DNA from: a virus
Taxonomy: Duplodnaviria; Caudoviricetes
DNA length: 64,000 bases
Virus record (IMG/VR): IMGVR_UViG_2706795719_000001
Coordinates: 64,001 to 128,000 of that record
Strand: one strand, 5' to 3'
Shown: piece by piece, positions 4,783 through 58,116 of the stretch
Layout: every line of letters begins with the position of its first letter
Position numbering within the stretch: the first letter of the stretch is position 1
Notes under the pieces: generated by a model
The model's input: only the letters and a program-made list of their open reading frames with translations
Database searches by the model: none
Told to the model about the DNA's origin: nothing
Position numbers and translations under genes: made by a program

Positions 4783-5422
4783 TTTTTACCTTTTTATAAA
4801 AATCGTCTAAAGAACTATTATTTTCAATAACAATATCACCTTCTAAAATTTGGAGGTCTTGCTCGGTGATATGATTATCATTTGTATTTGTGTTTTTCTT
4901 AATATGGATAACTTTTCCATTATGTAATCTGATTGCTTCTATTTCATGTATCTGTCGACAATCAGTAATAACAATTGTATGGGACTTAGGGATTCTTTTA
5001 TTAATATAATTAAATACTATATCCACCCAATACATTTTATCCATGCTTACAACAATATCTGTTCCAAGGGTCTGTAGGAACTTCCGAATTGTAAATTCAT
5101 TATTATTTATAACAGGGATTTTAGGTGTATCACCTTTAAGTCCATTTCTTTTTAAATGGGCAACACATCTCAACATATAATCTTCAAATTGGTCTTGTGT
5201 CATATCTAATTTAAATTCACGGTCAATACCGTGACCATCAAAATCTTTATAAGACAAATTAACACCATTATAATTTTGCCAATTTATAGACAATGTAAAT
5301 TTTAAATAATCAGCAAAGGCTATTTTGTGACAATATCTATTTTGTTCATCACATAATGATTCAATATAATTTGCACATGTATCTTTACCACTTCTTTTTT
5401 TGCCAGTCAATCCTATAATCAT
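4763..5422 (-). CDS. 1: dNMP kinase
   Basis: GKKRSGKDT P-loop, RKFLQTLGTD, TDCRQIHE. Confidence 0.95.
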   Translation of the reverse strand: MIIGLTGKKRSGKDTCANYIESLCDEQNRYCHKIAFADYLKFTLSINWQNYNGVNLSYKDFDGHGIDREFKLDMTQDQFEDYMLRCVAHLKRNGLKGDTPKIPVINNNEFTIRKFLQTLGTDIVVSMDKMYWVDIVFNYINKRIPKSHTIVITDCRQIHEIEAIRLHNGKVIHIKKNTNTNDNHITEQDLQILEGDIVIENNSSLDDFYKKVKNEYSKL

Positions 5423-5425
5423 TTA

Positions 5426-6004
5426 TTACCTCATAGATGGATGTAAATTTCGCCCAATAGAAATTGCTGAATCTTGGATAGACGGACGAGATACTATTAT
5501 TTTGTTATCTTTTTCAATTTCAAAATATTTAAAATTAAAATTAACGGTCATATAAACAGCTGGATCTCCTTCTGTATCATATCCATATTCTATATCAGAA
5601 ATAGAAGAAGGCCAAGCTCCATAATAATTAAAAGATACTAATGATTTCTTTTTATCATTATCTAGTATGTGTAATATGATACCTTCAGGTTGTCCAGAAA
5701 CATCCCAGGCACTATTATTATGAGTAATATAGTTATTTATTGATAACATCCATTTGTATATCTCGATGTACGAGAGGAGCTCCTCATCTAATAATACTTT
5801 AGCTATTAATTCACCGTGTTCTAATGTAGATCCAGGTAAATTTGATCTTCCAAGTCCTTTCGTTCCTAAAGGAACTTCTGTAATAGGTATTCTAACATCT
5901 GGAAGGATAAAGCTTTGAACATTTAGAGTAAAAGCTTCTGTTAATTTACTATCCGGTATATCTATTCTAAAGTTAGTAGAATTAGTTTGATTAAAAAAAC
6001 TCAT
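5426..6004 (-). CDS. 3: gp3 tail tube terminator
   Basis: FNQTNSTNF...LHILDN...YYGAWPS; synteny. Confidence 0.93.
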   Translation of the reverse strand: MSFFNQTNSTNFRIDIPDSKLTEAFTLNVQSFILPDVRIPITEVPLGTKGLGRSNLPGSTLEHGELIAKVLLDEELLSYIEIYKWMLSINNYITHNNSAWDVSGQPEGIILHILDNDKKKSLVSFNYYGAWPSSISDIEYGYDTEGDPAVYMTVNFNFKYFEIEKDNKIIVSRPSIQDSAISIGRNLHPSMR

Positions 6005-6005
6005 T

Positions 6006-6213
6006 ATAGTTTCCTTAGTTTATTATTTTATTAAAAGTATAGTATATTCTATATAACTATTAAGTAATAAATTAATAACTCTATGTTATTATTAAAATAT
6101 TAAAAATCTGGAGCGCAGCTCCAGAAAATAGTTTCTTCTAGTTATTATTTTATTAAAAGTATAGTATATTCTATATAACTATTAAGTAATAAATTAATAA
6201 CTCCATGTTATTA
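6006..6213. repeat. repeat-hairpin-repeat cassette, copy A
   Basis: Two ~85-bp AT-rich direct repeats (6006-6091, 6128-6213; period 122) flanking TCTGGAGC-GCA-GCTCCAGA (6107-6125). Confidence 0.95.
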
Positions 6214-7020
6214 TCTTTTCCAGACTTTAGAAGCAGCAAATCTTGAACCTTGAGACATAAATTGCTGAGTAGGCATAAAAATAATATTAGACCAGTCTTG
6301 AGGCTTAACTTCTATTATTGGTCCTTTAATATGACCTGGTAAATAAGCTTTTATCATTTGATCGGACCCATGCATTCCTCTAACACTACTCCAATTTATT
6401 TTTAGCTTGGTCTTAGATGAAATATTACTTGTAGAGGAAAACCGTTTTAATAATTCTTCTAAAAATGCTTGTCTGGCTTTAGGTGGTATATAATGAAGGT
6501 TTAAACCATATAATAATTGATTACCATTACCTGCTGTTTTCGCACCTAAGAATATAATTAAAGGAAACTTATCCCAATACGGGAGAGTATCTTTATTTTT
6601 GGCATCATAAACATAAGTATAAATCTTACCAATTTCTGGTGTTTTAGTAGTTCTTGTTCTAACACCAGTTTTAATAGTTTCTTTAAACCACTTTATAGAT
6701 TTATTGTTTACTGCTGCACCTTCGTTTCTTATTTTTTTCTTTAAAGTACTTCTAAACTCATTAACTATTGCAAGTTCGCGTTCTCTTCTTGTTAAATTAT
6801 GTTTAGATTTACCTTTAATGGCTTCAACTTCTAAAGCTTCTTTTATTTTATCTGAATACCTGCTCATTGCAGAAGTAAAAGTGCTATATTTTATTCCTTT
6901 ATGTTCTGCAAACTTTTTAGAAGATATACTTCGTCTCACTTTAGAAAATTCAACACCTAATTTAATCCAGTCTTGGGCCGATTTAGGTAATGTTTTTTCT
7001 TCTTCAATTTCAAATATCAT
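6211..7020 (-). CDS. 2: gp2 DNA end protector
   Basis: YDAKNKDTLPYWDKFPLII, GLNLHYIPPKAR. Confidence 0.95.
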   Translation of the reverse strand: MIFEIEEEKTLPKSAQDWIKLGVEFSKVRRSISSKKFAEHKGIKYSTFTSAMSRYSDKIKEALEVEAIKGKSKHNLTRRERELAIVNEFRSTLKKKIRNEGAAVNNKSIKWFKETIKTGVRTRTTKTPEIGKIYTYVYDAKNKDTLPYWDKFPLIIFLGAKTAGNGNQLLYGLNLHYIPPKARQAFLEELLKRFSSTSNISSKTKLKINWSSVRGMHGSDQMIKAYLPGHIKGPIIEVKPQDWSNIIFMPTQQFMSQGSRFAASKVWKR

Positions 7021-7466
7021 CCTTTCCACCCCATGGTCTTTAATGAGCTTTCAGTCACTATCTTAAATTGTAAATTCATTTTATCCGCTAATTTTTTAGC
7101 AGCTTTCCATTTATCAGAATTAACTTGATATGTATACATTTCTTCCATAAATCGTTTCTTTGCTTTAACTGTGACATTAGCAGGTGGTCTTGGCGGTTGA
7201 GTTTCTTTAAATGGTTTAACTTCAAAAAGGAATTCTTGGCCACTTTTAAACTTAGCCCAGAAATCCATAAAATATCTTCTTTTTTTACCATCTGCATTAC
7301 TAAAATACGGAATTATGACAGTTTCAGAACTCCAAGACACAACATCAGAATTATTATCAAGCCATTTCATAAAAAAATGTTCCCAAGATGATCTATAAGT
7401 TATTTTTCGCCAATCCCCTTTATATTTGTCTTTATTTACTGGCAAAAACTTACCTTTATATGCCAT
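7017..7466 (-). CDS. 4: gp4 head completion protein
   Basis: YRSSWE...RRYFMDF...EVKP motifs. Confidence 0.95.
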   Translation of the reverse strand: MAYKGKFLPVNKDKYKGDWRKITYRSSWEHFFMKWLDNNSDVVSWSSETVIIPYFSNADGKKRRYFMDFWAKFKSGQEFLFEVKPFKETQPPRPPANVTVKAKKRFMEEMYTYQVNSDKWKAAKKLADKMNLQFKIVTESSLKTMGWKG

Positions 7467-9795: not shown

Positions 9796-11861
9796 TGAAC
9801 TATTACGATAAAATAGATGAAGTGGTCTCAAACTTTGTTCATCCATGTGAAAGAGAAGTGCCAGATGGGTTCTATAGACGGGTTAAGTGGGAGCTATATA
9901 ATCCATCAAAAGAAAATAAAGGGCCAGGGAACGGCGAAGAGTGGGATACTGAGATAATAAAAATAGGCACTAGATTATATGACGCGAACCCATTTGGGCA
10001 TAAATCAGAAGAATTCCCGGAACCTTCTGTAGAAGGAGAAGATGAAGAAAAATGCAAATTTTGGTCTAAAAAAATAGGAATATGCTTCAAATCCCAACAA
10101 GAGCTTACTGATTATGTAGAATCTATAGGGTCTAAATTATTACCAGGCAATGATTGGTACGGGGCAGATTTATCTAAATCAAATCTGTTTAAAACACCAC
10201 ATGAATATAAAATGTACCAAATAGAAAACGCTGGTGGGACTTGGTCTAAAACAGGTCCTTCTATTGATAAAAGAACCATGATGATGGTAGACAAGGATTA
10301 TAATATTTCTATCAATTATAATGGCGTTTATGATTCAAGATCCGCTTATTTGAAACATTATGAAGACAAACCATGTACATATGTTGGTATAAGATTAAAC
10401 CTTGATGTAGATTTAAGTGTACCAGGAATACCTGAATCAGAACCTCCTACAATTGAAGGACTTCCACCTGAATTACCTGCATTAATGTTTGCAGCAAGAA
10501 GTTTACCTGCAATTGGATGTATTCCATTTAAAGCTAAATTTCCGTATAATGGATTATCACAAGCAATAGTTGAAGCATGGAATGAATCTAGAAGATCTTT
10601 TAAATTAATATGGGCAGATATTCCTGGCTTACCTGAAGGCGAAGGTTCTATCTGGAGTACCATGTATTCTGGTGTGTCTATTGCTATGGAAGAACTTGGT
10701 AATGCTGCATTGGGTATGTGCCAATATGTCCAACAAATGGCTTGGCTATCATTTAAAGAAGTTATTTCACAAGCATTAAACATTGTTGGTGGTGGTTGGG
10801 ATTTATTAAAATCATTTATTCCTAAAGTAACTATTCTTGGAATAACTTTTGACATAGAAGATATATGTACTTCAGGTAATGGGTTACAAAAATTAAAAGA
10901 AGCTTTTTCTAAATTTGATACAGAAAAAGTAATAGAAGGAATATATGCATTTATAGGAAGTGCCTACGAATATTCTGTAGAGTATGTGAAGGTATTTTCA
11001 AGAGACTTAATAGATGCTTTAACAGATTTATACGACTATTTGTGGTATGTTTTAATGACCGCTGGTGTAGCTTTATGCAAAACCCTTGTTAATTTAGCAG
11101 AAATTTGGTCCATTCCACCATGGATTCCAAACCCATTATGGAATGTTGTGATTGCAGTAAAAGAACTAATGAAACAAATAGAACCATTAGATATGATTCT
11201 TAAAGGTGGATTTCCTGGATTTACTGCTTCAGATTTATATTACATGGTAGAACGAAAAGTCAAAGAACTTATTGATGAAGCATACACCAAAATAGAATCT
11301 TTAAAAAATCAAGCCATTAAATTATGGGAACAAGTAAAAGAGGCAAAAGACAAGTGGCAAAAAGAATCTATAGGATTTAAACAATACCTTAAAGGCATGT
11401 ATGGCGCTGTCAGTGAAGAACTTACTCGTCAAAAAGAAGCTTTAGTACAAGAAGCAAAAGATATATACGAAAATTTATTAGCTAAATATGAAGCATTAAA
11501 TATAAATATAGACACACTTAAAGCTTCTGTTTCTAATGTACTTGAATTAGCATTAAATGAATTAAGAAATCTTCCTATAGTAGCCCAAATAGAACAACTT
11601 CTTTCATTAATAGGAACTTCATTTGATGAGATGATAACCACTATTAAAAATAGTATAACTGGTGCTCAATCATTATATAAAAACTTTACAGATGGAAGTC
11701 GATCACTAAAAGATATATGTAAATATATCTTCAGTCAAATTTCTACATTATCTTTGAGTAAAGTTACTCAATGGATTAATAAATTATTGAGTATATTCGG
11801 TTTAGAAATTAAATTTCCTGAATTAGAACTGTGTATACCATACGTAAAATACGAGGAATAA
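9795..11861 (+). CDS. large unknown protein (amphipathic helices + coiled coil) in place of 5.1/5.4
   Basis: 688-aa ORF, TAATG-coupled to gene 5, ends 1 nt before gene 6; no PAAR motif. Confidence 0.85.
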   Translation: MNYYDKIDEVVSNFVHPCEREVPDGFYRRVKWELYNPSKENKGPGNGEEWDTEIIKIGTRLYDANPFGHKSEEFPEPSVEGEDEEKCKFWSKKIGICFKSQQELTDYVESIGSKLLPGNDWYGADLSKSNLFKTPHEYKMYQIENAGGTWSKTGPSIDKRTMMMVDKDYNISINYNGVYDSRSAYLKHYEDKPCTYVGIRLNLDVDLSVPGIPESEPPTIEGLPPELPALMFAARSLPAIGCIPFKAKFPYNGLSQAIVEAWNESRRSFKLIWADIPGLPEGEGSIWSTMYSGVSIAMEELGNAALGMCQYVQQMAWLSFKEVISQALNIVGGGWDLLKSFIPKVTILGITFDIEDICTSGNGLQKLKEAFSKFDTEKVIEGIYAFIGSAYEYSVEYVKVFSRDLIDALTDLYDYLWYVLMTAGVALCKTLVNLAEIWSIPPWIPNPLWNVVIAVKELMKQIEPLDMILKGGFPGFTASDLYYMVERKVKELIDEAYTKIESLKNQAIKLWEQVKEAKDKWQKESIGFKQYLKGMYGAVSEELTRQKEALVQEAKDIYENLLAKYEALNINIDTLKASVSNVLELALNELRNLPIVAQIEQLLSLIGTSFDEMITTIKNSITGAQSLYKNFTDGSRSLKDICKYIFSQISTLSLSKVTQWINKLLSIFGLEIKFPELELCIPYVKYEE

Positions 11862-22510: not shown

Positions 22511-24247
22511 ATGGATAAAATAGAATTACTTCCACTGCCATTTGTTGACGGCCCAATTAAAGACCAAACACAGATAGAATGGATTTTAAACAAAAAAGAA
22601 TGTTTAACCGGTGCATCTAAATACGGTAAATCTGACGGGGTCCTTAACAGGGTCCCAGCTCAATTATATGAAAATATAAAAACTCTCCATGAAAACGATA
22701 CATTAATTAATGGACAAGTAAATGAATTAATCGATTCTGTTGACACTATTAATGAATCGTTAGAAATAGGAAATAATAAAGACTTAATAAAAACTATAAT
22801 AGAAACTAAAGATCGTGCTGATATTTTTGAAAGCGTTATACAAAGTAATTCTGACGATATATTTGAATTAGATGAAGATATTAAAGAATTGAAAGACGAA
22901 GTTGGAGTTCATAATCCAGTTGATACAGTAAAAAGAACCCTTCGTGATGATACGCTTTGGATTAAAAAAGAAATAGGTTCTTACCCTGGCCAAGACATAA
23001 ATGGTCAAACTTCGCAAGAATCTTTAGGTAGTGGCATGAAACGTCGTATTATAGATGTTGCTACACAAACCGTAGATAATACAAAAAGAATAGGTGTCCT
23101 AGAAAAAACATGGGCTGATTCCGATGTTGGTAGTTTAACCATAGAAGTTGGTAAATTAAGAGAAGAACTTGGAAAATCATCAGATCAAGAATATTTGTCT
23201 GTTTACAAAAGACTTTCTGTTATAGAGGACAATGTCGACAAAGGGTCTGAAGTTATAAGCGATATTATGACTAAAATAGGCCCAGGCAATGTATCTGAAA
23301 CCGTATCTATTAATACTCAAGAAATATCAAAATTGAACGAAGAAGTTCTAGGGACATCTGGATTAAAAACGAGAGTTTCTAGAATTGAATCTAAATTAGG
23401 CGACGAAACTAGCCCATTTACTATTTTATATGATATTAGTAAAAATAAAGAAGGGCTAAAAGACCTAAATACTATTGTTGGTGCCGATACAAGTTCAGGA
23501 TTACGTGGACAAGTTACATGGATCCAATCCCAAGTTGGATTAGGAGATGAACCACCTGCACCTGGTACAGTATTATCTAAAATAGATTTGTTGACTAACA
23601 GTACTAATGAACTTAGTATCGATGTTCAAAATTTACAGTCAGAGATAGGTAATAATAAAACCGGTATAAAAGGAACTGTTATTCAATTAGTCAAAGCTAT
23701 TGAAGGTACAGACCCTGAAGGATCGACTGTAAAAGAAATAGGTATCCAAAAAGCAACCGAAGACATGTATGAAGTATATGACAAAGGAATGCCTCTTCCA
23801 CCAGAAGATGGTAAAGCTTACATTTGTAGATATAAAACATGGACACCTATTCCAACTTCTTTGGGTGTATTTACGGCGAAGTATGCCAAAGCCTTAGAAG
23901 AAGGGTTAAATGATGTTGATATATCAGAAACTCTAATTAGTAAATTGTGTGAACTTACAGATGGTAAAGTATCAGTATTTGATAGTGGTCATTATGAAAT
24001 AGATTTTGAATCTCTTATTCCAAAAGAATTTAAAGATCGAAAAATAAAGTTTAGTATTTTTAAAAATGATGAAGTATTTTTTGAGACAAGCGATTTAATA
24101 TCAACAAATAATTCTAATGTTTTTAAAGAATCAACTATAGTTGAAATATCAGAAAATGATCAAATCCATGTAAAAGTGGAATCAACAGACTCTGATTTTT
24201 CTGAGATATCTTTTGGTATTAAATTACAAATTAAACCATTAATATAA
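22511..24247 (+). CDS. wac: fibritin with C-terminal extension
   Basis: LPFVDG N-terminus, segmented coiled coil, foldon-like PPEDGKAYICRYKTW followed by >120 extra aa. Confidence 0.92.
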   Translation: MDKIELLPLPFVDGPIKDQTQIEWILNKKECLTGASKYGKSDGVLNRVPAQLYENIKTLHENDTLINGQVNELIDSVDTINESLEIGNNKDLIKTIIETKDRADIFESVIQSNSDDIFELDEDIKELKDEVGVHNPVDTVKRTLRDDTLWIKKEIGSYPGQDINGQTSQESLGSGMKRRIIDVATQTVDNTKRIGVLEKTWADSDVGSLTIEVGKLREELGKSSDQEYLSVYKRLSVIEDNVDKGSEVISDIMTKIGPGNVSETVSINTQEISKLNEEVLGTSGLKTRVSRIESKLGDETSPFTILYDISKNKEGLKDLNTIVGADTSSGLRGQVTWIQSQVGLGDEPPAPGTVLSKIDLLTNSTNELSIDVQNLQSEIGNNKTGIKGTVIQLVKAIEGTDPEGSTVKEIGIQKATEDMYEVYDKGMPLPPEDGKAYICRYKTWTPIPTSLGVFTAKYAKALEEGLNDVDISETLISKLCELTDGKVSVFDSGHYEIDFESLIPKEFKDRKIKFSIFKNDEVFFETSDLISTNNSNVFKESTIVEISENDQIHVKVESTDSDFSEISFGIKLQIKPLI

Positions 24248-43170: not shown

Positions 43171-43200
43171 CAAAAATGGGACCTTACGGTCCCATTTTTT
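43171..43200. terminator. bidirectional terminator
   Basis: AAAAATGGGACC-TTAC-GGTCCCATTTTT between convergent genes. Confidence 0.85.
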
Positions 43201-47373: not shown

Positions 47374-48481
47374 TTTTTACCTTAATATGATCTACAGGTT
47401 TAAGAACTTTACTATTACTAAACATGTATATGTGAGTAAAACTTTGGTTATTAGACATTTCATGTATAACAGAATCCACATAAAATGTACTTAAAAATTG
47501 GTTTTTAGGGTCATAAAATTCCAATTTAGTCCCAGGTGTTATATCAAAATCACCATAAGTTGTGCATTTAGCATAAGAATCATATTGGGCCATGGTATTA
47601 AGCTTAGTTGCTTCTTCATACCCATTTCTGAATAATTGGTCAGAATAACCACCATTGCGAGATACTAATATAGAATTCTCTCCATTACCATTTACTATTC
47701 TTGTACAATTTTTATCAATCATACTAAATGAATATATTGTAGAATTCTCGTATGGATTTCTGTTATATGAATTTGTTTTTGTTATCCATTCAAAATCATA
47801 TGCTAATGGGTATTCTAATTGATCGGCAAATTGCCCGACCATTAATGGTTCTCCTACTACCATTTCTTTAACTTTAGAATTAATAATTTGTTGGAAATCC
47901 GTGATGTGGATCCCATTAAAATCATCCCAAACCAAAGCAAACATATCAGATGCAACAGAAATACCAGTATCTCTAACATAATCCATATATTCCTTAATTC
48001 CTAGTACCCATGGAACTAGAGGTACGTGTATATTAGTCCCTGTTATCGTAGGTTTCAATAGTGGCGCATCTGTATATAAAACATTAATCATTTCTTCAAT
48101 AGTTTCTGTAGCGTTCTTAAAGAACACCCTACTAAATTTAAGATTTTTATTTTTATATGGTGGTATTAATTGCATTGTGATAATATTATCACCTTTTTGG
48201 TCTACAGAAACAGATGAATATTTAACAGCATAAATTCTGGTTTTTGATATAGATGTATTAGCATTTCCTACAGAAATCTGAAGTATTTGGTCCCCATCAA
48301 GTTTAGTATGCATATTCTTATGGTCATAAATCTGAAGCATGCCTTCATTTGTCCCATATAAATCATCTCTGATAGTTAACGTAGTAAATGTTCCACCTAG
48401 TTCAACAAATCTATTTTCTAACCAAGCATCATAGTTTTGGTAGAGTTTTATAGATACATTAGGATATCCCACTCTTTGCAT
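47336..48481 (-). CDS. 27: gp27 hub
   Basis: GYPNVSIKLYQNYDAWLENRFVEL. Confidence 0.95.
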   Translation of the reverse strand: MQRVGYPNVSIKLYQNYDAWLENRFVELGGTFTTLTIRDDLYGTNEGMLQIYDHKNMHTKLDGDQILQISVGNANTSISKTRIYAVKYSSVSVDQKGDNIITMQLIPPYKNKNLKFSRVFFKNATETIEEMINVLYTDAPLLKPTITGTNIHVPLVPWVLGIKEYMDYVRDTGISVASDMFALVWDDFNGIHITDFQQIINSKVKEMVVGEPLMVGQFADQLEYPLAYDFEWITKTNSYNRNPYENSTIYSFSMIDKNCTRIVNGNGENSILVSRNGGYSDQLFRNGYEEATKLNTMAQYDSYAKCTTYGDFDITPGTKLEFYDPKNQFLSTFYVDSVIHEMSNNQSFTHIYMFSNSKVLKPVDHIKVKNEIKDNSSVEED

Positions 48482-49232
48482 GTTTTTTGTCCTTTATATC
48501 TTTTTCTATCAGTGCTAGTGTAATTGTTCGGTTCATAGGGGTCATTTTCTCAATATCAGATAAAGAATATCCCTGTTTAACCATTATATGGTTTATTTTA
48601 TAAAACGTAATTATCTCTTCTTCAGAAAGTATTATTTTAAATAAATCTAAAATATTTCTATATGTCATTTCATGAGATTCACAACAACTAAATTTAATTG
48701 GAATATAAATTGGATATATATCTTTTATGATAGTTTCAAAATCGTCTAATGATATAACAGACATGACAAGATTTTTATTTTCTTGGTCTAAGTCTTCCCA
48801 TAGATATTCACTATTAGCATCTTCTATTTTATATATACAACTATCAAATAATTGTTTTATATCAGTTGTCATGTTATTTGTAAAATCAAAATATATTTTT
48901 ATCCCTGAAGTCTCAAGAACTGGTCTATTAAGTTTTTTTAATTCTAAATTTAGAAATGTCTTTTTTTCTTTACCACATTTGGGGCACTTGAATCTTATAG
49001 GTAAAACTGTTTTACCTATTGATGCGGTAAACCATATAATAAATGCATATGGTCTATATATTTTTGGCATATCAGGAAAACATTCTTCTAAAAGCTCATC
49101 TAAAATTTGTTCTGCTTCATCTGGGTTTTTTTCTATTTCACTTCTCACAAAAAGTAATTGTAAATAATCATCATTAGAAAATTGTCTTATTCTATATGTT
49201 TTTTCAGGCGTAACAATTCTTATTATGTTCAT
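48459..49232 (-). CDS. 51: gp51 hub assembly protein
   Basis: SIGKT..P..F.CPKCGK; synteny. Confidence 0.9.
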   Translation of the reverse strand: MNIIRIVTPEKTYRIRQFSNDDYLQLLFVRSEIEKNPDEAEQILDELLEECFPDMPKIYRPYAFIIWFTASIGKTVLPIRFKCPKCGKEKKTFLNLELKKLNRPVLETSGIKIYFDFTNNMTTDIKQLFDSCIYKIEDANSEYLWEDLDQENKNLVMSVISLDDFETIIKDIYPIYIPIKFSCCESHEMTYRNILDLFKIILSEEEIITFYKINHIMVKQGYSLSDIEKMTPMNRTITLALIEKDIKDKKHAKSGIS

Positions 49233-49248
49233 AGTGTCTCCTCTTATT

Positions 49249-49260
49249 TATTTATAAATA
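49249..49260. promoter_or_regulatory. overlapping divergent late promoters (51/26)
   Basis: TATTTATAAATA contains TATAAATA on both strands. Confidence 0.8.
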
Positions 49261-49277
49261 CATAAAAAGGAGACACT

Positions 49278-49862
49278 ATGTTTGAAATAACATGCAATGA
49301 TTTAATATATAAAGCCAGATATTTCACCCTGGATGAATACGAGGCAACTCTTCTCAAAATAACTGATAATAATATTAAAGAAGCTATAACTAAGCTCTTA
49401 ATTGATTGTGTGGATTCCTATGATACAAATTTACCTAAACACTACGCAGAATGTATTTTTCTTAAACTATGGGCTCATAGTTTAGGTGGAGTGACAAAAG
49501 ACTTAAATGGTGTTTTTGTCAATTTTAATTATATAGAATCTCCAGCAGAAAAAGGCTTTATCTATAAAATAGAAAATTTAAGCTTAAAAATGAGGTATCC
49601 AAAATTATTTGAAGATTCTGATAAGCTGGAAATGGTTATTAATTGTATTGATTCTGTAATATTAGAAAATGAAACGGAAATAAAGATACAAGACCTTTCA
49701 TCAGAAGATATAGAAGCTTTATATTCGCTTTTAACAAAAGACTCTATTATTGCATTAAGAGATGAATTGCTTAGACCAAAACCATATATTGCTTTTCCAC
49801 TTGATGGAGAAATACATAAAATAGAAGGGTTTAAAAACTTATTAGAGGTGATAGATGAGTAA
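49278..49862 (+). CDS. 26: gp26 hub protein
   Basis: AECIFLKLWAHSLG, MRYPKLFED; synteny. Confidence 0.88.
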   Translation: MFEITCNDLIYKARYFTLDEYEATLLKITDNNIKEAITKLLIDCVDSYDTNLPKHYAECIFLKLWAHSLGGVTKDLNGVFVNFNYIESPAEKGFIYKIENLSLKMRYPKLFEDSDKLEMVINCIDSVILENETEIKIQDLSSEDIEALYSLLTKDSIIALRDELLRPKPYIAFPLDGEIHKIEGFKNLLEVIDE

Positions 49863-50241
49863 AATGAATGTTTTATACTCTGACTTGGACCCTAAAATGG
49901 AAAAAGGCTGGGATAAAGATCTACATAAAGTTGTAGGAGATAGAGCTGTTAAAAATTCTATTCTTGGGATAATTAGTACAAGAAAAGGGTCTAGACCCTT
50001 TGATCCAGAATTTGGGTGTAACATAACAGATCAGTTATTTGAAAATATGAGCCCATTAATAGAAGATACTATAGAACGATCTATTGTGTCTGCTATAAAA
50101 AATTATGAACCAAGGGTTCAACGTTTAAAAGTCTCTGTTACTACATTATATGATTCTAATTCTATCATAGTGGATATAATTTTTTCTATAGTAGATAATC
50201 CAGATACATTAGAACAAATAAAAGTTCAATTATCTAAATAA
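49855..50241 (+). CDS. 25: gp25 baseplate wedge
   Basis: LYSDLDP, TRKGSRPFDPEFGC, NYEPR. Confidence 0.96.
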   Translation: MSKMNVLYSDLDPKMEKGWDKDLHKVVGDRAVKNSILGIISTRKGSRPFDPEFGCNITDQLFENMSPLIEDTIERSIVSAIKNYEPRVQRLKVSVTTLYDSNSIIVDIIFSIVDNPDTLEQIKVQLSK

Positions 50242-50249
50242 TTTACTAT

Positions 50250-50413
50250 AGTTATTAATTTATTACTTAATAGTTATATAGAATATACTATACTTTTAAT
50301 AAAATAATAAACTAAGGAAACTATTTTCTGGAGCGCAGCTCCAGATTTTAATAACACAGAGTTATTAATTTATTACTTAATAGTTATATAGAATATACTA
50401 TACTTTTAATAAA
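50250..50413. repeat. repeat-hairpin-repeat cassette, copy B (reverse complement of copy A)
   Basis: Two AT-rich repeats (period 110) flanking TCTGGAGC-GCA-GCTCCAGA (50327-50345). Confidence 0.95.
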
Positions 50414-50484
50414 TTAGTTTACTATAGTTATTAATAATAGGCTATTATTATAATTTGTATATAATGTATCTTTATGGAGGAATT

Positions 50485-50895
50485 ATGAATTTAGAAGAAT
50501 TACAAACAATGTTATCAGAAGACCTAAAAATAGATTCGTTAAAACTTCAATATGAAGCTGCCAATAACCCATCATTATATGGTAAATGGTTAAAAATTTA
50601 TTCTGATATAAAGAAAGGAATTATTTCTTATGAGGCTAATAAGAAAAGATTACTAAAACAACGATTAGACCATTATACAGGCCGTGGCGATGAAGTATGT
50701 ATGGATTTATATGAAAAATCTGAACTAAAAACTGTTATTGCGGCTGACCCAGAAATATTAAAAACCCAAACATCAGTTGAATATAGAAATCTTTTATTAG
50801 ATTTTGCATCCAAAGCTTTAGATGCAATAAAGGCTCGTGGGTTTAGTATTAAACATATTCTTGAATGTAGACAATTTGAGGCAGGTACAAAATGA
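50485..50895 (+). CDS. uvsY: UvsY recombination mediator
   Basis: DLKIDSLKLQYEAANNP.LY.KW, ALDAIKARGFSIK...FEAG. Confidence 0.95.
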   Translation: MNLEELQTMLSEDLKIDSLKLQYEAANNPSLYGKWLKIYSDIKKGIISYEANKKRLLKQRLDHYTGRGDEVCMDLYEKSELKTVIAADPEILKTQTSVEYRNLLLDFASKALDAIKARGFSIKHILECRQFEAGTK

Positions 50896-51272
50896 CGAGC
50901 ATTGATATCATTAAAGAAAATTTAGATATGGTGTTAGCAATGGAGAATTTGACAACGGATTCTCAAAGAGACTTAGCTATTAATGCCATGAAACGGCATT
51001 TAACTAATATAAATAATATTAAGCTGATGGCTGAAGGTATTGATAAAAGTGGGTTATTACCTAATTATTCTTTACCACAAATAATTGAAGAAATAAAAGG
51101 ATGGGCTATGGACCATATTTGTGTAGTTTGTAAAAAGCCTATTGATGAAAGTTTAGTTATCTTTAACGATAATAATGAACCTGTTCATCCTGGGCCATGT
51201 TATAATTTCTCCAAAGAACAACCAGTAACAGAATCTGGGAGTTCTTTAAATGAAGTAGAATTATTAATGTAA
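50892..51272 (+). CDS. unknown N-domain fused to a uvsY.-2-like Zn-finger domain
   Basis: C-terminal ICVVCKKPID...VHPGPC; internal RBS and ATG at 51108. Confidence 0.8.
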   Translation: MTSIDIIKENLDMVLAMENLTTDSQRDLAINAMKRHLTNINNIKLMAEGIDKSGLLPNYSLPQIIEEIKGWAMDHICVVCKKPIDESLVIFNDNNEPVHPGPCYNFSKEQPVTESGSSLNEVELLM

Positions 51273-51287
51273 AAATAAAAGACGAGA

Positions 51288-51509
51288 TCACTCGTCTTTT
51301 TCTGTTTCTAGATCTTCTAATTCCAATCTTTTACCTTCTAATGCATCTCTGATAGAAATATCATCTGTATCTTTAATTTTTAATTCTTTAATTCGTTTAG
51401 AATAATATTTTTCTAACTCTTCTAATCCAGCCAATGTTTGGCATTCTCTAATTTTATTCATAAAAGTTTCTACACTAGCTTCTATTAAAATATCTTTAAA
51501 CGATATCAT
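51288..51509 (-). CDS. uvsW.1: UvsW.1
   Basis: CQTLAGLEELEKYY...DDISIRDAL. Confidence 0.9.
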   Translation of the reverse strand: MISFKDILIEASVETFMNKIRECQTLAGLEELEKYYSKRIKELKIKDTDDISIRDALEGKRLELEDLETEKDE

Positions 51510-53008
51510 AATTTAACCTCTCTCATTGAATAGTCAAATTTTTCACTTGCATATCTTTCTATACGTTCTAAAGCGTGCTTTAAAGCATAGTTCAAATGAA
51601 CATATTTCTTTTTAGTATTTTTAGACTTGGGTTTTACACCCATATCATCAACAATATCCCAAAGTACACCTTCTGCTTTAGAACCATGTAATCTAAGGAC
51701 CCTACCAATAGATTGAAGAACTGTTACTTTGGATTTAATAGGATGTGCAAATATAACATGGTGTAAATTCTTAATAGAGACACCAGCACTAAAAACACCA
51801 TAAGAAGCTACTACGACCATCCCTGAGCGTTTTTCTGCCATAGCCTTTATAATATCTCTATCTTTATCTTTAACCTCTCCTGCGATAAAGAAGACATTCT
51901 CTTCACCATGGATAGATTTACAATATTCGTAAAGATCTTTGCCGTGTGCGATTCTATCAAACATTACAAAAACATTTTCATCTTTGGACCCAAGTTTACA
52001 AGCTAACTTAGCAATCCATTCATTACGTTGTTTTGCTTTGATAATTATTTTTATTTCATCTTGATATGCAAAACCTTTAACCTTTTCCGTAAAAGCATCA
52101 GGATATCTTAAAAATAAAGTATTGATTTTAAGCTTAGAGACTTGTCCGGCTTCCATTAATTCTGCTGTAGATACTGGACGATAGATGTTTCCAAATAATC
52201 CAATATATTGCATAATATTAGCTTTACCGTCTTTTACTGTACCAGTTAATCCAAATTTGAATTTACAATTACTTAAGCCATTGATAATAGTACTAATGCT
52301 CTTTCCCGTAGCTAGATGGCACTCATCATTCATTAACATTCCGAACTGTTCAAACCATTCTTTAGGTTGTTTTATGGCCGTTTGCCATGTTGATACATAA
52401 ACCAATGCATCAGAATCTTTAGCAGTACCACCTTTAATTCCTAGAAGCATTTCTCTAGAAAATAATCTATAGTCAACTAAATCATCAATCATTTGTTTAA
52501 CAAGGATAGTAGTAGGAACTAAAATTAAAACCTTACCTTGGAAATTCTCAATATAATATCTAGCCAGGAGTGCCTGGATCAACGATTTACCAGCTGATGT
52601 AGGTAAATTCAACAATGCCCTGTTTTGTGACAGGCCTTTAACTACAGAGTCTTTTTGATACCAATGAGGCGTTATCTTAGTAGAACCAGAATAAACATCT
52701 TTAGAGTCCACCCAATCAGAAATTTCTTTTTCTGTAATTCCACCATTGTCTGTTATTTTAGGGTCTATTTCTACTTTATAATCCATATTATCAGCAAATT
52801 TTTTAACATAGTCCACTAATCCATACGGAAGCAGTCCATCATATCCTAAAATACGGATTTTACCGTCCCACTGCCCATATTTGAATTTAGGATTAAACTG
52901 GTAACCTGGAGTCTCAAAAGAAAAATAATCTCTAAGTTCAAAGAAAATAGAATCTTCACATTCGATTTTTACACTACTATAATCGTAAAACTTTAATTTA
53001 ATATCCAT
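51506..53008 (-). CDS. uvsW: UvsW helicase
   Basis: LPTSAGKS, NDECH, QSIGRVLR. Confidence 0.97.
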   Translation of the reverse strand: MDIKLKFYDYSSVKIECEDSIFFELRDYFSFETPGYQFNPKFKYGQWDGKIRILGYDGLLPYGLVDYVKKFADNMDYKVEIDPKITDNGGITEKEISDWVDSKDVYSGSTKITPHWYQKDSVVKGLSQNRALLNLPTSAGKSLIQALLARYYIENFQGKVLILVPTTILVKQMIDDLVDYRLFSREMLLGIKGGTAKDSDALVYVSTWQTAIKQPKEWFEQFGMLMNDECHLATGKSISTIINGLSNCKFKFGLTGTVKDGKANIMQYIGLFGNIYRPVSTAELMEAGQVSKLKINTLFLRYPDAFTEKVKGFAYQDEIKIIIKAKQRNEWIAKLACKLGSKDENVFVMFDRIAHGKDLYEYCKSIHGEENVFFIAGEVKDKDRDIIKAMAEKRSGMVVVASYGVFSAGVSIKNLHHVIFAHPIKSKVTVLQSIGRVLRLHGSKAEGVLWDIVDDMGVKPKSKNTKKKYVHLNYALKHALERIERYASEKFDYSMREVKL

Positions 53009-53022
53009 TACTTTCACCTTAT

Positions 53023-53044
53023 TATAAATACATATATATTTATA
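53023..53044. promoter_or_regulatory. opposed late promoters (inh / uvsW)
   Basis: TATAAATA on + (53023-53030) and on - (53037-53044). Confidence 0.75.
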
Positions 53045-53064
53045 CAAAGCCTAAAGAGGACATT

Positions 53065-57853: not shown

Positions 57854-57930
57854 TTTAATCTCCATTTGTTTTGATGAGCCTATAGTATCAAACTTAAAAG
57901 CAAAAGTAAACAAAAAAGGGACAAAAGTCC

Positions 57931-58116
57931 CTAAATAATTTTTTGAAGCTCTAAAGCAATATTTTTTAGTTTTTCTACGTCGGATTTTCTAAAATTAGAA
58001 TTCTTATCAAGATTAAAAGAAACCAAGGCATTGCTCCATATAGTTTCTTCTAACAAATCTAAGTTATCGTTTAAAATATTCTTCTGGCGATTGTCCGAAG
58101 ATTTCATAAAAATCAT
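57931..58116 (-). CDS. small hypothetical protein overlapping the ligase 3' end
   Basis: Fills the gap to the terminator; position of T4 alt.1. Confidence 0.5.
   Translation of the reverse strand: MIFMKSSDNRQKNILNDNLDLLEETIWSNALVSFNLDKNSNFRKSDVEKLKNIALELQKII

Follow-up and report, generated by a model that had tools for sequence, protein, structure and literature searches.

A conserved repeat–hairpin cassette at four syntenic gene junctions of T4-like phages, with recurrently inverting loops and a putative origin-like role

Why should a T4-like phage carry the same AT-rich repeat, paired around a small GC-rich hairpin, in separate intergenic spaces of its genome? The question is raised by a 64,000-nt stretch of DNA (hereafter the window), bases 64001–128000 of the 161,989-bp genome (31.1% GC) of a T4-like Proteus phage (IMG/VR record IMGVR_UViG_2706795719_000001), in which such a cassette lies between genes 2 and 3 (locus A) and again between gene 25 and uvsY (locus B). 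We compared this genome with its nearest records, the Proteus phages PM2 (98% identical), SJ_PmiM (SJ) and phiP4-3 and the “Shigella” phage Sdy006, all of the genus Bragavirus, and with phages of other genera, namely Gualtarvirus, represented by Morganella phage MP1 and the Providencia phages PSTRCR_121, PSTRCR_127, and PSTCR6, and Muldoonvirus, represented by the Serratia phages Muldoon and WSPA and Cronobacter phage VP8. The cassette proved to be a conserved non-coding cis element at four syntenic sites. As to its function, the reading that we rank first, with low confidence (a probability of roughly 35%), is that of a putative DNA-level unwinding, hairpin-extruding, origin-like element.

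The initial annotation had described a 54-nt unit that occurs four times identically in the window, two copies per locus, and this was confirmed: exact matches lie at 6027–6080 and 6149–6202 (+) and at 50250–50303 and 50360–50413 (−), placing copy B at 50250–50413 as described, and 100 shuffles gave zero matches. Loci A and B are real, but they are only half of the family, which has four loci rather than two. Genome-wide, six exact copies of the unit (U1) and two variant copies (U2) are spread over the following sites.

Genome 38.4–38.6 kb: locus C, between an open reading frame (ORF) of 473 aa and gene 55.
Genome 70.0–70.2 kb: locus A, between genes 2 and 3.
Genome 114.25–114.41 kb: locus B, between gene 25 and uvsY.
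Genome 150.29–150.43 kb: locus D, between genes 35 and 36.

The loci are spaced roughly evenly (38, 70, 114, and 150 kb), and their GC contents of 10.0, 10.8, 12.5, and 13.3% are the four lowest among the 120-bp windows of the 162-kb genome, the next lowest being 15.8%. Loci C and D have two units in succession, then the hairpin, and then the next gene, which has its own promoter: sigma-70-like in the case of gene 55, TATAAATA in that of gene 36.

The same junctions are occupied in the relatives. In PM2, SJ, phiP4-3, Sdy006, and MP1, all four junctions carry a pair of copies of the core of the unit, TATTACTTAATNNTTATATA, whereas the reversed-pattern control gave 0 matches for this core and 0–1 across the pattern searches. 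The Providencia phages also carry the cassette at these junctions, and the three Muldoonvirus genomes have a single unit with a hairpin at every one of the four. Altogether, four loci per genome, with pairs or singles at the same core junctions, were found in 11 genomes of at least three genera. Within Bragavirus, the 20-nt core is unchanged in 39 of 40 copies, compared with 83–86% identity of the flanking genes, which indicates purifying selection in addition to homogenisation. The earlier suggestion of a real cis-acting element is thus upheld by more than 10 independent genome records in which the element is better conserved than the adjoining genes, and misassembly is excluded by the presence of the same cassettes in those records. 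A fifth, weak core-like match (TATTACTTTATTCTTATAAA, two mismatches) lies at genome positions 23594–23613 and is kept in three Bragavirus genomes (10143–10162 in PM2 and 4858–4877 in SJ). A scan of IMG/VR for further relatives returned mostly single chance matches in AT-rich contigs, plus the known genomes. A literature search for the motif, including the genome papers of phages Pm5461 (PMC4923195) and MP1, found no description of it; those two papers give only tallies of generic promoters and terminators.

Comparison across genera reduces the unit to a nested dyad, TTATTAC-N8-TATAT-N3-ATATA-N8-(G/T)TAATAA, whose arms and center are conserved and whose N8 spacers vary, the right one being free and the least conserved. 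The description of each unit as an imperfect palindrome stands for the duplex (TTATTAC...TAATAA around TATAG-AA-TATA) but not for the single strand, which folds no better than shuffled sequences (z −0.4 to −0.6), so that any role of the symmetry would lie in duplex recognition. The stems of the 30-odd cassette hairpins, in turn, vary in sequence from locus to locus and from genus to genus (CTGGAGC, CAAGGAGC, CTGGGAGC, CTGGGCC, CTGCGC, CGAGGC, and others), yet every hairpin is a perfect palindrome, indicating that pairing itself is selected.

In the window, loci A and B share a common layout when read in the direction of transcription: a stop codon, a unit, a leader-like segment, a hairpin with a T-run, a second unit, and the next gene. 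In agreement with the initial annotation, each pair of units encloses an 8-bp GC stem with a 3-nt loop, TCTGGAGC-NNN-GCTCCAGA (6107–6125 and 50327–50345), and the gene 3 ribosome-binding site (RBS) and leader (AAGGAAACTAT) lie within the repeat, recurring after the first unit of locus B at 50304–50324 and, in decayed form, after the distal unit of locus A. Following transcription, the features of locus A are these (window positions).

6211–7029, minus strand: gene 2, DNA end protector, upstream of the cassette (phrog_429, E 2e-74; PM2 annotation).
6149–6202, minus strand: distal unit U1 (exact 54-nt match), beginning 8 nt past the gene 2 stop codon.
6126–6148, minus strand: decayed copy of the gene 3 leader and RBS (AATAATAACTAGAAGAAACTATTTT), abutting the hairpin, recognised from the sequence and from alignment with relatives.
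6107–6125, minus strand: hairpin TCTGGAGC-TGC-GCTCCAGA (GCA on the plus strand), followed by a minus-strand T-run at 6097–6106.
6027–6080, minus strand: proximal unit U1 (exact match), immediately 5′ of the gene 3 RBS.
6002–6016, minus strand: gene 3 RBS and start codon (AAGGAAACTATAATG).
5426–6004, minus strand: gene 3, of the tail completion/tube PHROG family (ORF list and PHROG match).

Locus B reads as follows.

49855–50241, plus strand: gene 25, with its stop codon at 50239–50241.
50250–50303, plus strand: distal unit U1 (exact match), beginning 9 nt past the gene 25 stop codon.
50304–50324, plus strand: copy of the gene 3 leader and RBS (ATAATAAACTAAGGAAACTAT), not followed by a gene and matching the gene-3-proximal flank of locus A exactly.
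50327–50345, plus strand: hairpin TCTGGAGC-GCA-GCTCCAGA, followed by a T-run at 50346–50349.
50360–50413, plus strand: proximal unit U1 (exact match).
50414–50435, plus strand: truncated beginning of a third unit (TTAGTTTACTATAGTTATTAAT), the 5′ flank as in the full 66-nt period of loci C and D.
50440–50465, plus strand: candidate MotA-type middle promoter of uvsY (GGCTATT-N13-TATAAT), outside the cassette, conserved in SJ, phiP4-3, and MP1.
50485–50895, plus strand: uvsY.

The block 51 / 26-25-uvsY-uvsY.-1 / uvsW.1-uvsW (48459–53047) is inverted relative to T4 and to Serratia phage Muldoon; locus B lies within it, as had been noted, and was turned round together with its genes. Upstream of cassette A in Providencia phage PSTRCR_121, an ORF for a “mobile endonuclease” (positions 720–1397 of the stretch compared) stands straight after gene 2, and in E. 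coli phage VR25, genes 2 and 3 are separated by a homing endonuclease.

As DNA, the hairpins of the window fold with −7.7 to −8.0 kcal/mol whichever strand is taken, at z-scores of −5 to −7, and as RNA with −12.7 kcal/mol, equally for both loop forms; terminator-like matches of stem plus T-run, as at loci A and B, were expected 0.0–0.1 times by chance in shuffles. Between these two loci, the loop alone is inverted, as first reported: in the direction of transcription, it reads TGC at A and GCA at B, and the plus strand consequently carries GCGCAGC at both. In the five Bragavirus genomes, the loops in the direction of transcription are the following.

Locus A: TGC in this genome, GCA in PM2, ACA in SJ, GCA in phiP4-3, GCA in Sdy006.
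Locus B: GCA in this genome, GCA in PM2, GCA in SJ, GCA in phiP4-3, TGC in Sdy006.
Locus C: TTC in this genome, GAA in PM2, GCA in SJ, GAA in phiP4-3, GCA in Sdy006.
Locus D: GAA in this genome, TTC in PM2, AAA in SJ, AAA in phiP4-3, TTT in Sdy006.

With an AAA/TTT flip at locus A between PSTRCR_121 and PSTRCR_127, these comparisons reveal at least six independent exact loop inversions within a small set of closely related genomes. For a control, the 84 perfect hairpins present in this genome (stem of at least 6 bp, loop of 3–6 nt) were all compared with their orthologues. Relative to PM2, three of the four cassette hairpins (A, C, and D) were flipped, compared with 1 of 63 others (Fisher p = 3.3e-4), and between phiP4-3 and Sdy006, two of four (B and D) were flipped, compared with 1 of 67 others; in the latter comparison, the flip at D was scored by script and that at B from long-flank alignment, as the script had mis-paired the near-identical paralogs of loci A and B. 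The ordinary terminators of this genome have mostly UUCG- or GAAA-type tetraloops, which are fixed. Loop inversion in the cassettes is therefore recurrent and specific, and loop orientation depends on neither the strand of the genome nor the direction of transcription. Outside the cassettes, a single hairpin is flipped relative to PM2, namely AAAAATGGGACC-TTAC-GGTCCCATTTTT (window 43172–43199, genome 107172–107199), which has a 12-bp stem and resembles a bidirectional terminator, indicating that loop inversion also occurs elsewhere, but less often; the one between phiP4-3 and Sdy006 is AAAGGAACC-AAAA/TTTT at position 102199 of phiP4-3.

The initial annotation had proposed that selection holds GCGCAGC on the plus strand, and had itself named random loop orientation in relatives as grounds for refuting this. 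That comparison found no fixed strand: the loops are flipped in PM2 (A, C, and D), in Sdy006 relative to phiP4-3 (B and D), and between PSTRCR_121 and PSTRCR_127, and selection for polarity is accordingly rejected. The flips probably arose as intrastrand template switches or hairpin-mediated inversions, and their frequency may be attributed to easy extrusion of a GC palindrome in very AT-rich DNA, to neutral loop orientation, or to both; the two loop forms appear to be functionally equivalent. Such events have precedents. In chloroplast genomes, short loops between perfect inverted repeats of intergenic hairpins are exactly reverse-complemented, and template switching in quasipalindromes is reportedly the basis of Ripley's model for T4 rII. 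The cassettes resemble these hairpin-associated inversions in their recurrent, homoplasious, exact loop flips between very close relatives, but differ in that the flips are concentrated in one hairpin class (3/4 compared with 1/63), which suggests unusually frequent extrusion or unusually weak constraint.

Within each genome, the copies are homogenised by gene conversion. At loci A and B, phiP4-3 and Sdy006 have the arrangement U2–hairpin–U1, whereas this genome and PM2 have exchanged the upstream U2 for U1 together with the gene 3 leader; SJ is a mosaic, with the new form (as in this genome) at A and the old, phiP4-3-type form at B. The leader copy is missing from locus B of SJ, phiP4-3, and Sdy006, and in the last two, 12 nt of the decayed-leader segment are also missing at locus A, where the ancestral U2-type unit stands instead. 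U1 and U2 types have been swapped between loci. In Muldoon, the right spacer of the locus A unit contains the gene 3 Shine–Dalgarno (SD) sequence (GGAG), and this spacer has been passed on to B and D; between Muldoon and WSPA, the order of unit and hairpin at locus A is exchanged. The alignments of relatives indicate that the gene 3 leader moved from A, as donor, to B, and the leader at B (…AAACTAAGGAAACTAT) is thus a passenger of conversion and no evidence of a function there.

What, then, might the cassette do? In the reading that we rank first, it would serve as an entry point for the replication or recombination machinery, comparable to the origins oriF and oriG of T4, which combine a promoter with a DNA-unwinding element. 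A GC palindrome surrounded by the DNA that melts most easily in the whole genome would extrude readily, producing the frequent loop flips, and closing the upstream late operon, as its 3′ end or terminator, would be a secondary task of the hairpin in this genome. An origin or unwinding role had already been suggested by the initial annotation, and remains plausible given that the four loci are the most AT-rich segments of the genome and that one has the position of T4 oriF; the part of that suggestion which invoked a strand-specific GNA loop has not survived. The Muldoonvirus hairpins mostly lack a T-run, and the module at locus B of WSPA is inverted relative to its genes, indicating that the conserved role is not simply termination or a directional promoter. 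Furthermore, uvsY, gene 55, and gene 36 keep promoters of their own downstream of the cassettes, in support of a role at the level of DNA.

Like oriF and oriG, the cassettes are intergenic elements of approximately 100–200 bp with an extreme A+T content, present at several sites per genome, one of them at the gene 25/uvsY junction, where oriF lies, and another near the tail-fiber genes. They differ in that the four cassettes share one motif, whereas the T4 origins share none, in that the unit has no canonical MotA box (the middle-type promoter of uvsY is downstream of the cassette), and in that the GC palindrome belongs to the cassette and not to oriF or oriG. In a more specific form, which we regard as doubtful, the cassettes would be sequence-defined sites of replication initiation or replisome loading in this clade, each pairing an AT-rich dyad unwinding box with a palindrome extruded in vivo in hairpin or cruciform form. 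The loop flip-flop would then be the footprint of extrusion, analogous in outcome to the flip and flop forms of hairpin-replicating viruses, and, if this were true, no shared origin motif would have been known in the T4 superfamily before the cassette.

Several points weigh against an origin-like role. The origins of T4 have no common motif (PMC3016281), and among them, oriF alone coincides with a cassette; oriC lies near rI.-1, oriE near repEA, and oriG inside gene 34. No initiator was identified for the cassette. Upstream of locus C, the 473-aa ORF next to gene 55 (genome 38567–39988, minus strand), whose sole annotation is that of a hypothetical protein, shows a weak match to DEAD-box helicases (PF00270, E 0.002, below the cut-off). 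It occurs in 239 phage records, those of RB49, RB43, and Aeromonas phages among them, and is thus widespread in non-T-even T4-like phages, but RB49 has 40 nt without a cassette between this ORF and gene 55; the helicase-like protein is therefore not co-distributed with the element and was rejected as its partner or initiator. The excess of flips could reflect relaxed constraint on triloops, as opposed to UUCG and GAAA tetraloops, instead of more frequent extrusion. The cassettes are, with one exception, co-oriented with transcription, and they begin within approximately 10 nt of a stop codon. Finally, the hairpin and T-run score as an intrinsic terminator at three of the four loci here (A, B, and D), and gene 3 lacks the late promoter TATAAATA that 14 other late genes have, as well as any other recognisable promoter, so that its transcription would have to run through the cassette hairpin or begin in the unit.

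The last two points fit equally well the explanation that we rank a close second and consider tentative, namely a transcription boundary of the kind formed by PeSL and PmSL elements. The hairpin would end or attenuate the upstream late operon, and the AT-rich unit would be a promoter, or a UP-like or MotA-like element, of the downstream gene (gene 3/gene 1, uvsY), with copies kept alike by phage recombination and flips neutral. PeSLs and PmSLs (PMC2839356, PMC4122927) are short, composite intergenic elements of T4-like genomes that join a stem-loop to an AT-rich, promoter-like segment and sometimes end in SD plus ATG. The order at gene 3, hairpin, AT-rich unit, RBS, ATG, is the layout of a PeSL (PMC4122927), and in Muldoon, the SD and ATG of gene 3 stand inside or at the unit. 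PeSL copies recombine with one another, which is matched here by the transfer of the leader and the exchange of U1 and U2. Orthologous hairpins are annotated as terminators in MP1 and VP8, and U1 contains both a weak sigma-70-like hexamer pair, its only one, TTAATA-N16-TATACT, and the MotA-promoter geometry TACTTAA-N13-TATACT. The latter has the spacing of T4 PuvsY with a G-to-A change in the box, but its −10 element is absent from U2 and from several MP1 and Providencia copies. The genome possesses motA and asiA.

On the other side, sigma-70-like matches are no commoner in the units than in shuffles, and no −35/−10 pair is conserved across genera. The genome has an early-promoter consensus of aGTTTACa-N18-TAnnAT, and the unit mismatches it: GTTTAC is present in the 5′ flank, yet the N18 distance leads to ACTTAA; canonical TGCTT MotA boxes occur elsewhere in the genome. 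A canonical early, middle, or late promoter was therefore rejected, the unit fitting none of GTTTAC-N18-TAnnAT, TGCTT-N12-TAnnnT, and TATAAATA. At loci C and D, both units are upstream of the hairpin and face it, and the next gene has its own promoter; likewise, uvsY has the conserved MotA-type promoter listed above, which matches T4 PuvsY (TGCTTCA-N13-TATAAT), the oriF promoter, in geometry and position. No T-run follows the hairpin at locus C or most hairpins of Muldoon and WSPA, and the terminator form is not general in the family; the inverted WSPA locus B likewise speaks against a boundary. In these respects, the cassettes differ from PeSLs: they occupy four fixed core junctions across genera, whereas PeSLs number tens of copies in hyperplastic regions beside ORFans, and their units lack the phage early-promoter consensus, often precede the hairpin, and are dyad-symmetric, while the triloops flip and the hairpins often have no U-tract. 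Ordinary PeSL-like sites, consisting of a GC hairpin (GGGAC-TTTT-GTCCC), a T-run, and GTTTAC-N18-TAnnAT, are present in the same genome, at window positions 57880–57935 (genome approximately 121.9 kb, minus strand) and at genome 158.1 kb and 61.75 kb, and at two PeSL-like sites (genome 119491 and 121911), a TGCTT MotA box lies within the early-promoter spacer.

An unlikely alternative is that the unit is an operator-like site for a dimeric or tetrameric DNA-binding protein of phage or host, for example an architectural protein resembling integration host factor (IHF), which would act in insulation, enhancement of late transcription, concatemer processing, or packaging and not in replication. 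The nested dyad with its conserved arms and variable spacers, the lack of a stable single-strand fold, and the invertible orientation seen at WSPA locus B would all suit such a site, and the MP1 units show an 8/9 match, read by eye, to the IHF core WATCAANNNNTTR. Spurious symmetries and IHF-like matches are, however, common in AT-rich DNA, no candidate protein was identified, and nothing links the four junctions to packaging or clamp loading. In architecture, the cassettes can be likened to the repetitive extragenic palindromes and bacterial interspersed mosaic elements (REP/BIME, including repetitive IHF-binding palindromic elements, RIP) of enterobacteria, which place GC-rich palindromes at operon 3′ ends with AT-rich IHF motifs and whose copies are likewise homogenised; unlike the cassettes, they belong to the host, number in the hundreds, and lack conserved positions.

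We consider it still less probable that the cassettes are small RNA genes, in which a promoter in the unit would fire into the hairpin to yield an AU-rich RNA of 45–60 nt ending there. The arrangement of unit and then hairpin is the most conserved one (Muldoonvirus and loci C and D), and a promoter facing a terminator makes little sense otherwise; no promoter is conserved, however, Rfam returned no family match to the cassette at E ≤ 1, most hairpins outside Bragavirus lack a U-tail, and conservation is lowest in the right N8 spacer, which would form the body of the RNA.

The remaining proposals of the initial annotation, a strand-specific d(GCGNAGC) single-stranded DNA hairpin selected on the plus strand (in paired origins or helicase-loading sites) or a mobile cassette resembling a miniature inverted-repeat transposable element, are very improbable: the GNA forms of the four cassettes in this genome (GAA, GCA, GCA, and GAA) are all on the plus strand, but this is a 1-in-8 outcome by chance and those of PM2 lie on −, −, +, and −; loops outside Bragavirus are often not GNA (TAT, ATA, and AT in WSPA, AAA and TT in MP1, TC in PSTCR6), nor is ACA at locus A of SJ, so that the d(GCGNAGC) structure is not the conserved feature; and a mobile element is at odds with fixed, syntenic positions at the same four junctions in at least three genera, with no target-site duplications seen.

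To our knowledge, T4 aside, replication origins and long-range cis elements have essentially gone unmapped in T4-like phages. A short element at four fixed sites in several genera that infect clinically relevant Enterobacterales is a candidate origin, boundary element, or protein-binding site. Hairpin extrusion or template switching can be read out naturally from its loops (3/4 compared with 1/63 at 2% genome divergence), and for phage engineering, the cassettes represent recombination-active repeats that are able to rearrange or convert one another.

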